Below are positions 1,007 to 50,000 of a stretch of DNA of 64,000 nt, piece after piece. Within the stretch, counting starts at the first letter, position 1, and every line of letters begins with the position of its first letter. Position numbers and translations under genes: made by a program. The notes beneath the pieces are model-generated. The model was not told the origin of the DNA, did no database searches, and saw only the letters and a program-made list of their open reading frames with translations. The stretch comes from an uncultured delta proteobacterium (GTDB taxonomy: Bacteria; Myxococcota; Myxococcia; Myxococcales; Myxococcaceae): the NCBI GenBank assembly GCA_963796055.1, contig CAWCKH010000004.1, forward strand, positions 3,072,001 to 3,136,000, in the 5' to 3' direction.

Positions 1007-3892
<2,886 letters not shown>

Positions 3893-46969: not shown

Positions 46970-47051
46970 GCCCAGGTGGTGGAACTGGTAGACACACCAT
47001 CTTGAGGGGGTGGCGCCGAAAGGTGTGCGGGTTCGAATCCCGCCCTGGGCA
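46970..47051 (+). tRNA. tRNA-Leu(GAG), canonical
   Basis: GCCCAGG/CCTGGGC acceptor, loop TTGAGGG, long variable arm, GGTTCGAATCC. Confidence 0.95.
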
Positions 47052-47129
47052 CTCTCAGTCCCTCGGAACTGCAGAGCAAATCTCGGAGCCGGTGGTCGAT
47101 TGACCCCTCGTTGACCCTGACTCCGAGCC

Positions 47130-47245
47130 CTCCGCGGTCCAGTGCTGATCCAGCGCCGCCACTGCCTCTCGCCGGCTGTCCGGAGACAGGTGCGAGTAGC
47201 GCGTCGTCATCTCGATGGTCGCGTGCCCGAGCAGCTCCTGTGGCT
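47130..47245 (-). mobile_element. Tyrosine integrase C-terminal remnant
   Basis: QELLGHATIEMTTRYSHL (box II His and catalytic Tyr) directly after the tRNA. Confidence 0.85.
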
Positions 47246-47297
47246 TAGGCATCGAACTCGCGGCCGCTACCATCCCTTCCTCTCCTCGTGGACCGTC

Positions 47298-47589
47298 ATG
47301 CTCTTCGCCGTGCTCTTCACCGACAAGACAGATCGTGCCGAACTCAGAGCCGAGCATTCTCGATGCGCACATTCGGTGGATAGCCGAGCACCAGGACCTC
47401 ATTCTCGTGGCTGGTTCGCTTCGTGCCGAGCCACAGGAAGTGCCCAAGGGAGGGCTTTGGATCGTCGAGGCAGAGTCAAAGGCTGCAGTGATGGAATTGA
47501 TGAAATCGAACCCGTTCTTCACCTGCGGCCTGCGCCAAAGCTTTGAAGTTCTGCACTGGAGCAAGCGCTTCAGGACCGAAAGGCTCTAG
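47298..47589 (+). pseudogene. YciI family gene, frameshifted
   Basis: MLFAVLFTDK..RAEH, extra base near 47358, then LDAHIRW..AGSL..GGLWIVEAES..NPF. Confidence 0.75.
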
Positions 47590-47665
47590 TCTGATGCCGG
47601 GCTCGAGGAGCTTGCCGTGGAGCGAACGGACCCAACCTCCGAACAGCGCGGTGTTCAGGTCGTAG

Positions 47666-47818
47666 AGGCGCGCCCGACTGCCTTGCCTCTGGCTCGACGT
47701 GCTCCGGACCAACGCCGGTGCGCGCCGGTTCTACCATCTCCACGGGTTTCAGGTCCGGGCGGAGCTGCCGTTCTCCACGGATATCGCCTATCCGGGATTG
47801 CTGGTGATGGTCCGATAG
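47666..47818 (+). pseudogene. GNAT acetyltransferase C-terminal fragment
   Basis: LWLDVLRTNAGARRFYHLHGF (motif B); in-frame stop upstream, no start. Confidence 0.7.
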
Positions 47819-47856
47819 CATCCGGGCAGGGGACGGGTGAGCTGAAGAGGAACCTC

Positions 47857-48012
47857 ACTCGGCTCTCCGCTGACGCCGAGAGACGCATCGCCTCGCTGGT
47901 GCTGGGCAACCTGAACGAGGATGGCTACCTCAAGCTGCCTGACGTCGAGGGCGACTCGCTCATCCGTCGGGCCAGCAAGGCGGACGTGCCCATGCTGGTG
48001 GCCGAGCGGACC
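47857..48012 (+). pseudogene. Internal fragment of sigma-54 (RpoN) core-binding domain
   Basis: ERRIASLVLGNLNEDGYLK resembles RpoN I.GNLD.DGYL. Confidence 0.65.
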
Positions 48013-48218
48013 ACCATGGTTTCGACAACGACAATCACGCCTCGCTACGACAAGGCCGCGGCCCAGCTGGCGTGGCGGCACTTGGTTTCCTGGGCATTTC
48101 GCCACAGGGGCGGCCATTCCCCAGCGATTCTCATCGCCGAGCTCCCCACCCCGTCTTGACTCCACGTGGTGACGGGCGTACCTACCTCACCGCAATCGAA
48201 GTCGGAGCAGCGCAGACG

Positions 48219-48389
48219 ATGAACACTCGAACCCAAGTGCTGGCAGTCGCCGCGGTGGTCAATGCCCACCGGCGGATCGGCTCGCGCTCGTGCGGGTGGG
48301 TGTCGTCCGCCGTGCCCTCGATCGAACTCGCACTGGCGATGAGCCAGCGCGGAGGCGATCGCGGCACACCCGACTTCATGCGTCGCTGA
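48219..48389 (+). CDS. Putative 56-aa leader peptide of the tRNA array
   Basis: GGAG 11 nt before ATG; stop lies 26 nt before the terminator; last codons overlap the antiterminator strand. Confidence 0.5.
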   Translation: MNTRTQVLAVAAVVNAHRRIGSRSCGWVSSAVPSIELALAMSQRGGDRGTPDFMRR

Positions 48390-48415
48390 TCCGGAACATC
48401 GGATCGGGGCTCAGG

Positions 48416-48455
48416 AGGCCGGGTGACCATCAGGGGTCCCCGGCCTTTTTCTTTC
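48416..48455 (+). terminator. Intrinsic terminator/attenuator upstream of the tRNA array
   Basis: AGGCCGGG(T)GACC-ATCAGG-GGTCCCCGGCCT, a 12-bp stem, followed by TTTTCTTT. Confidence 0.8.
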
Positions 48456-48473
48456 CTGGACACCCCACCGAAT

Positions 48474-48541
48474 AGGCCGCGCGCTGGGCGCAGGTGGGTC
48501 TCCAAAGCCTGCCGACGAGGGTTCGATTCCTTCACGGCCTG
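48474..48541 (+). tRNA. tRNA-Trp(CCA), reduced D-arm
   Basis: Loop CTCCAAA, GGTTCGATTCC, AGGCCG/CGGCCT acceptor. Confidence 0.75.
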
Positions 48542-48660
48542 CACGCCCCCGTCCCTGCAGGGGCTCTGAAGCCTGACGGCGCTGTTCTGTGACATCGAAC
48601 AATAGAAGCGACATTCGGGCTACCCGTCTGCCCTGGCTTGCTCCCCTCCATCCGCTCTGA

Positions 48661-48732
48661 TGGGGCGTCGTCTAGTCGGCAGGACCCTGGGCTCTGACCC
48701 CAGCGAGGGAGGTTCGACTCCTCCCGCCCCAG
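48661..48732 (+). tRNA. tRNA-Gln(CTG)
   Basis: TGGGGCG/CGCCCCA acceptor, loop CTCTGAC. Confidence 0.9.
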
Positions 48733-48751
48733 CAATCTGAAGCAAAGTGAA

Positions 48752-48824
48752 GGCGCCGTCGGCCAGTGGTCAGGCCACCAGACTCTCGATCTGGGAACGG
48801 AGGGTTCGATTCCCCCCGGCGCTG
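48752..48824 (+). tRNA. tRNA-Glu(CTC)
   Basis: CCAGA-CTCTCGA-TCTGG, GGCGCCG/CGGCGCT acceptor. Confidence 0.88.
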
Positions 48825-48829
48825 CTCAT

Positions 48830-48913
48830 GGCGGCCGACAATCAATGGCCGATCAGCGGGTTGTGACCCCGTGGGGCGAGAGCCCCGAAGGAGTTCGATT
48901 CTCCTCGACCGCC
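48830..48913 (+). tRNA. tRNA-His(GTG) with long variable arm
   Basis: GCGGG-TTGTGAC-CCCGT; G-1:C73 pair; GGGGC-GAGA-GCCCC variable hairpin. Confidence 0.75.
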
Positions 48914-48918
48914 CTGAT

Positions 48919-48990
48919 GCCTCGTTGTCCCTCTGGTGAAGGTCTCCGGCTGTCTACCGGACGAGACGGGTTCGATTCCCGTACGGGGCG
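48919..48990 (+). tRNA. tRNA-Asp(GTC)
   Basis: TCCGG-CTGTCTA-CCGGA, G73. Confidence 0.8.
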
Positions 48991-48992
48991 CT

Positions 48993-49064
48993 GGGCCGTG
49001 TGTCACTGGGGTGCAGCTCGGTCTCGCACACCGAGCGTGCCGGGTTCGATTCCCGGGCGGTCCA
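48993..49064 (+). tRNA. tRNA-Ala(CGC)
   Basis: Loop CTCGCAC; G3:U70 and A73 identity elements. Confidence 0.82.
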
Positions 49065-49083
49065 CACGTCGTTCTACGTTGCT

Positions 49084-49152
49084 GCCCCGTCCAGCGGATC
49101 TGGACCCCGCTCTCCGAAGGCGAGCGAGACCGTTCGACTCGGTCACGGGGTA
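49084..49152 (+). tRNA. tRNA-Arg(CCG), reduced D-arm
   Basis: Loop CTCCGAA, GCCCCGT/ACGGGGT acceptor. Confidence 0.72.
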
Positions 49153-49158
49153 CTGCCG

Positions 49159-49227
49159 GCCCCCATCGGTGGAACCGGACTCGCGGCTACGAACCGTGAT
49201 GAGAGCGTTCGATTCGTTCTGGGGGTG
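49159..49227 (+). tRNA. tRNA-Arg(ACG), reduced D-arm
   Basis: TCGCGG-CTACGAA-CCGTGA, GCCCCCA/TGGGGGT acceptor. Confidence 0.75.
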
Positions 49228-49232
49228 CTTCG

Positions 49233-49304
49233 CGTGGCGTCGCCAGGTGGGAAGGCAGCGGTCTCATGAACCGCCGATCGCAGGTTCGACTCCTGCCGCC
49301 ACGA
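49233..49304 (+). tRNA. tRNA with CAT anticodon (Met; Ile2 not excluded)
   Basis: GCGGT-CTCATGA-ACCGC, CGTGGCG/CGCCACG acceptor. Confidence 0.85.
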
Positions 49305-49307
49305 TAT

Positions 49308-49380
49308 GCCGGACAGTTCACCTGAAGGTGATGCCGCTCTCACACGGCGGAGGCGCAGGGTTTGATTCCCTGGTCCGGTA
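49308..49380 (+). tRNA. tRNA-Val(CAC), atypical D-arm
   Basis: CCGCT-CTCACAC-GGCGG; T-loop TTTGATT; A73. Confidence 0.75.
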
Positions 49381-49387
49381 CATCAGA

Positions 49388-49461
49388 GCCGAGGTAGCCC
49401 AACCGGTAGAGGCACTGGTCTCAGACACCAGCAAGTGAGGGTTCGAATCCCTCTCTCGGTA
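49388..49461 (+). tRNA. tRNA-Leu(CAG) with short variable loop
   Basis: CTGGT-CTCAGAC-ACCAG, 5-nt variable loop CAAGT, GGGTTCGAATCCC. Confidence 0.85.
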
Positions 49462-49526
49462 CAGCGGCCGGAAAGCCAGGTCCGTTGTCCAATCTTCCCT
49501 GGGGTCGAATCCTGTCCGACTCGCAC

Positions 49527-50000
49527 TCAGGGCTTCTCCCGCTCGTCTCGAGCGCGCGCCTCGGCGATCGCTCTCACATCGTCAAGGTATCGTCCTGCGT
49601 GAGGGCCCGTGGGGAGCGCCTCCTGGGCCCGGCGACAATCGGCCGTTCGCCCGTACCCGGTGATCGCCGAACTGAGGGCCAGAGTCCCCAAGGCGGTCAT
49701 TGTCGCCCCGATCGCGATTGCCTCTCCTGAGCTCGGGCCGACGCACCAACCGGTGCAGCTCCCGCTGGCTGCACCTGCCACGATCCCAAGCACGCCAACC
49801 CCGATAAGAGGAACCGCGAGAAAGGTGTCGACAGCCGGGACGGCATTGGAGGACGTGCACTCCAGCTTCGTCGGCTCCGGCTGCTCTGTCTCGTGGGCGG
49901 AGATCTCGGCTGAATGAGGTCCGTGAACGAAGGCGTACGAGCAGCCGGAGTTGCCCAGGGTCAAGAGCATCACCCCCGCAATGCACACCGCTCTCGCCAT
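49527..50000 (-). CDS. Hypothetical lipoprotein/membrane protein
   Basis: Signal ending SGC, two hydrophobic helices, several Cys. Confidence 0.65.
   Translation of the reverse strand: MARAVCIAGVMLLTLGNSGCSYAFVHGPHSAEISAHETEQPEPTKLECTSSNAVPAVDTFLAVPLIGVGVLGIVAGAASGSCTGWCVGPSSGEAIAIGATMTALGTLALSSAITGYGRTADCRRAQEALPTGPHAGRYLDDVRAIAEARARDEREKP

Follow-up and report, generated by a model that had tools for sequence, protein, structure and literature searches.

The window analysed here is a 64,000-nt stretch of DNA from an uncultured member of the Myxococcaceae. Within it, a promoter-like region, a short open reading frame (ORF) and two overlapping hairpins lie immediately upstream of an array of tandem tRNA genes. 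The leader ahead of the array contains the following features, of which the two antiterminator strands are predicted from folding.

48155..48184, + strand: promoter-like region, CTTGACTC containing the -35 box TTGACT (48156-48161), then a spacer and the -10-like box TACCTA (48179-48184)
48169-48176, + strand: GTGACGGG, within the spacer between the -35 and -10-like boxes
48198..48218, + strand: ribosome-binding region GAAGTCGGAGCAG, with GGAG at 48204-48207, 11 nt 5' of the ATG
48219..48389, + strand: leader ORF, 56 codons plus TGA (48387-48389), ATG at 48219
48367..48393, + strand: predicted antiterminator 5' strand, covering the final 7 codons and the stop; CCCGAC core invariant
48386..48407, + strand: nested hairpin P1, CUGAUCCG / CGGAUCGG, loop GAACAU, stop codon in the 5' arm
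48400..48428, + strand: predicted antiterminator 3' strand (48400-48425), overlapping the terminator 5' arm (48415-48428)
48417-48428 with 48435-48445, + strand: terminator stem, 11 pairs and G+C-rich in the window
48435..48456, + strand: terminator 3' arm (48435-48445) and T-tract, TTTTTCTTT at 48446-48454 (T5CT3)

The first-pass annotation had named the 56-codon ORF, a hairpin with a T-tract just before the tRNAs, and TTGACT as a possible -35 box, and all three stand. Folded alone, the terminator reaches -29.1 kcal/mol (z -3.6; 0/200 shuffles as good), and a simple terminator scan flagged it in part only. CTTGACTC, GTGACG and TACCT are invariant in 15/15 distinct leaders, the two G's after GTGACG are kept in at least 90% of them, and TTGACT is separated from TACCT by 17-18 nt across these homologues. 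The promoter-like region occurs once in the genome; a consensus promoter scan did not flag the TTGACT at 48156. The earlier annotation had also held that an independent promoter between terminator and tRNAs would count against attenuation. The T-tract lies 18 nt from the start of tRNA 1 (48474), which leaves no space for such a promoter.

The tRNA array and its spread

Downstream of the terminator, the array is made up as follows.

48474..48542, + strand: tRNA unit 1, Trp (CCA), 69 nt, minimal D-arm; called by ARAGORN, Rfam 22.7 bits only
48543-48565, + strand: internally deleted tRNA-Thr remnant; about 51 nt of tRNA-Thr (CGT) missing relative to G267 and L036
48566-48660, + strand: conserved non-tRNA spacer, 95 nt
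48661, + strand: tRNA Gln CTG, called
48752, + strand: tRNA Glu CTC, called
48830-48913, + strand: His-like unit, 84 nt, weak tRNA-like match by Rfam only
48919, + strand: tRNA Asp GTC, called
48993, + strand: tRNA Ala CGC, called
49066-49158, + strand: tRNA-sized unit, called by neither ARAGORN nor Rfam
49159, + strand: tRNA Arg ACG, called
49233, + strand: tRNA Met CAT, called
49305-49387, + strand: tRNA-sized unit, called by neither ARAGORN nor Rfam
49388, + strand: 75-nt unit with anticodon CAG, called (units 2 onward span 48661..49462)

Eleven tandem tRNA genes had been proposed. Nine of these are called (eight by ARAGORN and one, weakly, by Rfam), while the remaining two are tRNA-sized and uncalled. 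The Trp unit is the first gene in every array of the window's family. The genome has 59 tRNA genes, and each of the 8 ARAGORN anticodons of the array is also found outside it. Related arrays hold 15-19 tRNA units by ARAGORN, compared to 9-11 in the window, and the window array is a shortened, partly degraded version of these larger arrays. Neither the consensus promoter scan nor inspection revealed a promoter-like site inside the array. In contigs from four soil metatranscriptome runs, matches were confined to tRNA units of related arrays. Some of these contigs span several tRNA units, suggesting that polycistronic precursors may exist, although DNA carry-over is possible.

The promoter, ORF, hairpins and array recur together in 4 Myxococcaceae MAGs and 13 soil-metagenome contigs, and the leader is always joined to an array. 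These 17 other loci, with the window's own, give 15 distinct full leaders, which form the basis of all comparisons below; when metagenome loci were retrieved with a tRNA-1 pattern, 13/21 carried the module. Conservation upstream of homologous arrays had been put forward as a check on the attenuation reading, and the ORF, nested hairpin, antiterminator strand and terminator are indeed kept upstream of every homologous array found. Homology to the window is limited to about 48086-48136 through 49468, beyond which the flanks differ among loci, with at least three different contexts. The leader module thus moves as one unit with the tRNA array. Leader DNA is present in 5/208 true genomes of the family (1/13 in the window's genus and 4/8 in another genus), and the array was not found in the 12 same-genus genomes searched.

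A viral source for the module was considered. Scans of viral contigs with the tRNA-1 pattern and the promoter pattern found nothing, and BLAST to phage records matched single tRNAs only. Two further candidate loci were set aside: in genome G287, 36 nt match region 2, but there is no tRNA nearby and the stretch looks protein-coding by eye, so we take the match as unrelated, and genome G181 gave a chance-level match only.

Reading frame and predicted folding of the leader

The leader ORF bears marks of a conserved reading frame. Its ATG and GGAG are conserved, and the block GAAGT(C/T)GGA(G/A)C around the ribosome-binding site is kept in 15/15 leaders. The distance from ATG to stop is a multiple of three in 14/15 distinct copies (162, 165, 168 or 177 nt), the exception being L024, which carries a +1 frameshift. 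Indels 3' of the stop codon measure 1-2 nt, in contrast to the multiples of three within the ORF. However, the peptide evolves neutrally, with a pN/pS of 0.75-1.86 (about 1) and variable columns spread over the three codon positions as 31/37/30 of 54. A kept frame with pN/pS about 1 is what is expected if the act of translation matters and not the peptide product. It should be noted that no stop codon interrupts frame 2 in 12/15 copies either, so openness alone tells little in DNA this GC-rich, and that GC3 in the leaders of the G175 clade shows no coding bias. Several residues (Thr3, Arg4, His, Cys-x-Trp and Pro-Asp) are kept through synonymous changes. The peptide matches no Pfam family, and a set of 5.8 billion proteins held no homologue besides the window's own peptide.

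The codon content of the leader is broad. With 54-59 codons each, all 14 intact leaders encode 18-20 of the 20 amino acids; a 55-residue window of host protein, by comparison, reaches at least 18 with a probability of 0.16. Runs of codons for one amino acid are absent from the leader peptides, so the leader would sense general translation speed and not the supply of one amino acid. We also considered whether leader Arg codons track the Arg anticodon of the array (in the G175 clade, AGG/AGA codons and CCT/TCT anticodons; in the window clade, CGC and ACG); this idea was dropped because L035 lacks those Arg codons. By hand count, about 18/56 leader codons are cognate to window array tRNAs, which would be roughly the share expected from the codon usage of high-GC genomes.

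Folding of the RNA predicts two overlapping structures, and the overlap of their strands was read off the two separate folds. The long hairpin at 48364-48428, including the nested GATCCG/CGGATC hairpin of the first-pass annotation, reaches -34.6 kcal/mol (z -4.4; 0/200 shuffles as good). Pairing of CACCCGACTTC (48367-48377) with GAGGCCGGGTG (48415-48425), also described there, is present in the minimum-energy fold of the nascent RNA. The antiterminator appears in that fold in 15/15 leaders and in the RNAalifold consensus, and GAGGCCGGGTGACC in its 3' strand is invariant in 15/15. The bare CACCCGACTTC/GAGGCCGGGTG duplex, however, is not above chance (-17.7 kcal/mol against a mean of -18.3 for dinucleotide shuffles of the upstream RNA). 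The fraction of shuffles with terminator-arm complementarity at least as good is 0.2-0.7 in 14/15 leaders, and region 2 is the best-pairing site for the terminator arm in only 10/15.

The full-length leader RNA folds into the terminator in 14/15 leaders, and at equilibrium this fold is favoured by 12-24 kcal/mol, so an attenuation switch would hinge wholly on folding kinetics. A canonical T-tract is found in the window only; the other 14 distinct leaders end in CTCTCGCTTTTTGGG or a similar tail, in which the stem is followed by 3-6 non-T bases before a short T-run begins. Covariation, which had been suggested as a check, is seen in P1 and in neither of the switch helices. P1 is paired in 100% of cells and has one compensatory pair (G-C in 11, A-U in 4), tied to the TGA/TAA change, and one one-sided change besides, while its loops vary freely. 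The antiterminator helix has 8/11 invariant pairs and the terminator helix 11/13, both with no compensatory change; since the switch helices do not vary, covariation is silent either way. An Rfam search of 48150-48470 with E up to 1 returned no family match, T-box included.

The stop codon (48387-48389) lies inside the antiterminator 5' strand (48367-48393), a position shared by all 15 leaders. By this position, a ribosome at the end of the leader ORF would be expected to cover the antiterminator strand.

A second, unrelated type of leader has the same architecture by direct folding. In the Tyr-first arrays L028 and L034 (L046 is identical to L028 over the 200 nt compared), the leader ORF has its TAG stop within the 5' strand of a long hairpin (-20.3 kcal/mol in L028, -28.8 in L034). 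The 3' strand of this hairpin is the 5' arm of a second one (-16.4 and -21.3 kcal/mol, respectively), which is followed by T7 and, after about 25-40 nt, by the first tRNA. Both leader types thus share a layout in which the final codons and stop lie in the 5' strand of the long hairpin and its 3' strand is the terminator 5' arm. The helix sequences of L028 and L034 differ from each other. Their bulged terminators were missed by the simple terminator scan and found by direct folding. A viral scan for further type-2 leaders, run with the terminator tail that they share, matched 120 loci; no tRNA followed any of them within 150 nt, so the tail pattern is that of a generic terminator.

Proposed attenuation and its alternatives

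Taken together, we consider it reasonably probable that 48155-48456, with its promoter, 56-codon ORF and overlapping hairpins, is a ribosome-mediated attenuator that gates a mobile, redundant tRNA array in response to general translation speed. The switch would work as follows, as we infer from the folds. As the RNA emerges, the long antiterminator hairpin would form first. If ribosomes promptly translate to the leader stop, they would melt this hairpin, the terminator could then form, and transcription would end ahead of the tRNAs. With slow, stalled or missing ribosomes, as under antibiotics or after tRNA loss or cleavage, the antiterminator would persist and RNA polymerase would enter the array. 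The attenuation reading of the first-pass annotation gains from the conservation of the leader, the lack of room for a promoter and the repetition of the design in two unrelated leaders. Chance-level complementarity, weak T-tracts in the 14 other leaders, the lack of switch-helix covariation and the absence of single-amino-acid codon runs weigh on the other side.

Three other explanations must be weighed against this attenuator. It is unlikely, in our estimate, that the ORF and hairpin form a separate small transcript (a small protein gene or an sRNA) with its own terminator, while an internal promoter or leaky read-through supplies the tRNAs constitutively and translation has no part in regulation. 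Such an arrangement would fit the chance-level complementarity and the equilibrium preference for the terminator, the kept residues hint at a peptide function, and the 95-nt spacer at 48566-48660 could hide a promoter. However, tRNA 1 precedes that spacer with just 18 nt 5' of it, and neither consensus scanning nor inspection found a promoter-like site in the array. The pN/pS of about 1 across the whole peptide, the lack of a Pfam family and the repetition of the ORF-end-in-hairpin design in unrelated leaders also argue against a separate transcript. A protein could instead set expression and leave the ORF incidental, either as a repressor at GTGACGG in the promoter spacer or as an RNA-binding protein on the invariant hairpin; we judge this quite unlikely. 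In 15/15 leaders the spacer between the -35 and -10 boxes carries an unchanging GTGACG, and the G after it is almost invariant. Furthermore, the 13-pair terminator stem has 11/13 pairs invariant and none compensatory while the acceptor and T stems of the adjoining tRNA 1 differ, by eye, between two clades, which suggests sequence-specific recognition.

There is also a precedent for protein control in the Anabaena trn operon, where, in the account given in PMC8421152, direct repeats lie over the -10 box and start site and a repressor is hypothetical. In our leaders no direct repeats were seen, and since the loci have different flanks, no regulator gene accompanies the module. Protein control would leave the kept frame and constant stop-in-P1 unexplained, and it could coexist with attenuation rather than replace it. 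Very unlikely, finally, is a role of the hairpins in pre-tRNA leader processing or stability (an RNase III or RNase E site, or a 5' protective structure) in place of a terminator switch. The canonical tails in the window (T5CT3) and both type-2 leaders (T7) speak against it, as do the conserved ORF and alternative pairing, which it does not explain. The weak T-tract in 14/15 leaders would be in line with processing, as would the distance of 18-25 nt between hairpin and tRNA 1 5' end and, allowing for DNA carry-over, the metatranscriptome contigs over several tRNA units.

The proposed attenuator resembles several known systems in part. Leaders of the erm/vmlR type are antibiotic-inducible and sense ribosome stalling in general. 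Mycobacterial whiB7 is described in PMC10274678 as controlled by a uORF attenuator. With all of these the window leader shares a short, putatively translated leader ORF, an intrinsic terminator and a predicted overlapping antiterminator, with ribosome position predicted to pick the fold and impaired translation predicted to induce. It differs in preceding a tRNA set and not a resistance gene or regulator, and in having no known drug-specific arrest motif. The trp/his-type geometry put forward originally holds for the layout: as in trp/his/phe attenuators, the end of the ORF falls within the antiterminator strand or shortly 5' of it, and the terminator lies just ahead of the first regulated gene. 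It does not hold for the sensor, since the window leader lacks regulatory codon runs. In addition, the conserved 1:2 'pause' hairpin is weak in window-type leaders (consensus -4 kcal/mol). Folding predicts the antiterminator in the absence of any ribosome, so that an untranslated leader would be read through instead of super-attenuated, unlike in trp/his/phe.

Horizontally spreading tRNA arrays are widespread. Like L-arrays, the window array is redundant with the housekeeping tRNA set, patchily distributed and transferred as a unit. However, it and its relatives (9-11 and 15-19 units) are shorter than most L-arrays and fall below the size of at least 20 tRNA genes given in the definition quoted from PMC4758250. 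The trn operon of Anabaena sp. PCC 7120 is an L-array that is silent until translation is impaired, and PMC8421152 places its control at the promoter, through direct repeats and a hypothetical repressor. The two arrays are alike in their supernumerary tRNAs, short spacing and patchy distribution implying horizontal transfer, and release on impaired translation is the same logic that we propose here. The main text of PMC8421152 contains 0 occurrences of attenuat-, terminator, leader or Myxococc-. A full-text literature search outside the subscription journals found no attenuator described ahead of a tRNA array, and within the same scope the Anabaena trn operon was the only tRNA array whose regulation has been studied.

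If the attenuator is real, an array-borne RNA switch would explain how a foreign tRNA set stays silent and harmless in a new host and is freed under translational stress, with control of the array independent of any host regulator. Leader-peptide attenuation would then also cover genes that encode the sensing ribosome's own substrates, and the result would be a direct feedback loop. As the window array is decaying, the switch may have lost importance in this strain. More broadly, and only tentatively, it is possible that mobile tRNA arrays bring along a 'translation speedometer', a leader ORF that samples nearly the whole codon table. When nearly any tRNA is short, cleaved or sequestered (by antibiotics, starvation or tRNA-targeting toxins), the leading ribosome would lose speed, the antiterminator would stay in place and back-up tRNAs would be freed. 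On this view the design arose or diversified at least twice, as type-1 and type-2 leaders.

The putative attenuator system is small, at about 300 nt.

Leader module and its distribution

The sequence upstream of the tRNA array matches the first-pass annotation, which described an ORF, a nested hairpin and a stem with a T-tract here.

Features of the leader module in the window
48219 to 48387-48389: leader ORF of 56 codons, from ATG to TGA
GATCCG/CGGATC: small hairpin P1, with the stop codon within its 5' arm
48417-48428 with 48435-48445: G+C-rich terminator stem, followed by TTTTTCTTT

Folded alone, the window terminator reaches -29.1 kcal/mol (z -3.6), and none of 200 shuffles was as good. 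The T-tract lies 18 nt before the start of tRNA 1 (48474), a gap that leaves no space for the independent promoter that the first-pass annotation had considered incompatible with its reading. Within the promoter spacer, 15/15 leaders share an invariant GTGACG (48169-48176; the G after it is almost invariant), a candidate operator for a DNA-binding protein.

The leader and both hairpins are conserved upstream of tRNA 1 in homologous arrays from genomes and metagenomes, as the first-pass annotation had anticipated. When 301 genomes of the order were searched by translation, the leader reading frame turned up in two MAGs from a second genus of the family (59% and 37% identity), with arrays of 17 and 15 ARAGORN tRNAs directly downstream. 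An exact scan for the terminator pattern, using one genome per species, gave 4 loci, all from Myxococcaceae or 'delta proteobacterium' MAGs. Metagenomes were scanned with tRNA 1 as the anchor, and hence independently of the leader. Of the 21 loci obtained, 13 had the leader with its two hairpins immediately before tRNA 1; the remaining 8 had a related tRNA in other settings. Leader DNA was present in 5 of 208 true genomes within the family, along with one unrelated 36-nt match in genome G287 (L054, 1353-1389). This match is 92% identical to region 2, the upstream segment predicted to pair with the terminator 5' arm, in a locus that appears protein-coding by eye and has no ARAGORN tRNA; it could be a chance hit or the remote origin of that segment. 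The array did not turn up in 12 same-genus genomes. One of these 12 (G010; L002, about 1498-1600) keeps the remnant of an array since lost: a single Arg(ACG)-like unit, 96% identical, and part of the following unit, without a leader. Homology to the window begins at 48086-48136 and ends at 49468, and flanking DNA differs from locus to locus. The module is conserved, and leader and array move together.

Leader reading frame and RNA folds

We aligned 15 distinct leaders. The ATG, a GGAG-type ribosome-binding site and the stop-codon position are conserved, and the ATG-to-stop distance is 162, 165, 168 or 177 nt, a multiple of 3, in 14/15 leaders, while indels 3' of the stop codon are 1-2 nt. The peptide itself drifts (pN/pS 0.75-1.86 in 14 pairs), and its three codon positions vary about equally often (31, 37 and 30 variable columns of 54). 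A frame kept without amino-acid conservation is, as judged from the alignment, a leader-peptide pattern. Frame 2 is likewise stop-free in 12/15 copies, and GC3 is coding-like in no clade but the window's. No Pfam family covers the peptide, and a large protein set contained no relatives of it. Each of the 14 intact leaders uses 18-20 of the 20 amino acids (P of 18 or more in host protein windows, 0.16), a broad use that is suggestive and confounded by shared ancestry. The exception, L024 (a MAG locus; 3700-3770, minus strand), has one extra base and a +1 frameshift, either a sequencing error or a natural variant; the shifted frame would continue into the arm of the terminator, ending with the TGA in GGGTGACC.

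When the alignment was cut before the terminator 3' arm, RNAalifold returned the antiterminator proposed in the first-pass annotation, with P1 nested inside. The same helix (9-14 pairs) formed in 15/15 single nascent folds, whether the upstream part was masked or not. Its strand contains the stop codon, and the long hairpin in the window (48364-48428) reaches -34.6 kcal/mol (z -4.4). Adding the 3' arm favoured the terminator in 14/15 leaders, by 12-24 kcal/mol, and the two helices are predicted to be mutually exclusive. The antiterminator is 98.8% paired in the leader alignment: 8/11 pairs never vary, compensatory changes are absent, and there is one change from U.G to C-G. P1 has one compensatory pair, and 11/13 terminator pairs are invariant. 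Since invariant pairs are silent, covariation gives no evidence for or against the switch. A control spoke against the complementarity that was central to the first-pass annotation: the best duplex between the terminator 5' arm and upstream RNA did not exceed dinucleotide shuffles in strength, and region 2 was the best pairing site in only 10/15 leaders. A canonical T-tract occurs in the window leader only.

Proposed attenuation and the Tyr-first arrays

In the proposed mechanism, the antiterminator would form first. A ribosome at the stop codon would melt it and allow the terminator to form, while with slow or absent ribosomes the antiterminator would stay and the tRNAs would be transcribed. 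A trp/his-type attenuator was ruled out, as the leader has no codon runs, and for the same reason the sensor would respond to how fast translation proceeds overall. A T-box was ruled out by an Rfam search of the leader. The mechanism would resemble that of antibiotic-responsive leader peptides, including the whiB7 uORF (PMC10274678). The Anabaena L-array is induced when translation is impaired, according to PMC8421152, and we propose the same logic for the window array. Full-text searches of main articles returned no description of an attenuator upstream of a tRNA array. What the first-pass annotation observed is confirmed, and its proposal that translation of the leader controls termination is partly supported by comparative evidence. 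The analysis shows linkage to the array, a maintained frame, a stop codon within the antiterminator strand, predicted folds that exclude each other and a lack of space for a separate promoter; the ribosome-driven steps are inferred.

Among the other metagenome arrays, L028 and L034 start with tRNA-Tyr behind a leader unrelated to the window's (L046 matches L028 over the 200 nt compared). These leaders have a TTGAC(T/G) box and are roughly 230 nt long. Their ORF closes with a TAG that falls in the 5' strand of a long hairpin, with folding energies of -20.3 and -28.8 kcal/mol (z -3.8 and -4.1). The 3' strand of this hairpin doubles as the 5' arm of a second one, which scores -16.4 and -21.3 kcal/mol, carries a T7 tail and lies about 25-40 nt ahead of the first tRNA. 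L028 and L034 keep this architecture with different helix sequences. This amounts to covariation of whole helices and supports a functional switch more strongly than any other finding.

tRNA array and flanking DNA

The first-pass annotation counted 11 tandem tRNAs. ARAGORN called 8 between 48474 and 49462, 5 of them at or above the Rfam gathering score, and Rfam added a weak tRNA-like match (48830-48913); a further 2 are tRNA-sized units called by neither tool. As each array anticodon also occurs elsewhere in the genome (5.5 Mb, 70% G+C, 59 tRNA genes), the array is supernumerary. It is a reduced form, without the Thr, Lys, Gly, Asn, Cys, Pro, Ile and Phe units found in relatives. At 48543-48565, ~51 internal bases are gone from the tRNA-Thr(CGT) that relatives keep intact, and its two acceptor ends are joined. 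The following non-tRNA spacer (GTTCTGTGACATCGAACAATAGAAGCGACATTCGGGCTACCC..., 48566-48660) is kept in arrays of both clades and may hold an internal promoter or another RNA. Several units are non-canonical: tRNA 1 (48474-48542) is a Trp unit of 69 nt whose D-loop has 3 nt, relatives have an 84-nt 'His' unit (L036, 3468-3551), and the 75-nt unit at 49388-49462 (anticodon CAG) is not a normal tRNA-Leu because it has no long variable arm.

The module is flanked by an ORF resembling an SPFH (band 7) gene, judged by eye, in G267, L036 and L047, and by a lipoprotein-like gene in L045. An element (CTCATAAGCCT...ATGT..CAAACC) ~150 nt upstream of the promoter is conserved in the four genome loci read.

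Positions of the upstream element
L022, 5100-5040, minus strand
L012, 1400-1450
L024 and L026, about 3990-3930

Beyond it, on the opposite strand, lies a tRNA-like remnant in G175 and (by translation) G267; the window has neither element nor remnant. Its own flank consists of gene fragments beside tRNA-Leu(GAG) (46970-47052). This patchwork of short pieces (47055-48140) includes a YCII-domain piece (Pfam E 7.8e-6) and, by eye, a tyrosine recombinase C-terminus, an acetyltransferase end and a sigma-54 piece, likenesses that Pfam did not confirm. The region resembles a hot spot of integration that has since decayed. Just beyond the module, the stretch at 49463-49527, ending GGGGTCGAATCCTGTCCGACTCGCA, resembles a tRNA 3' part by eye and may be a target-site remnant.
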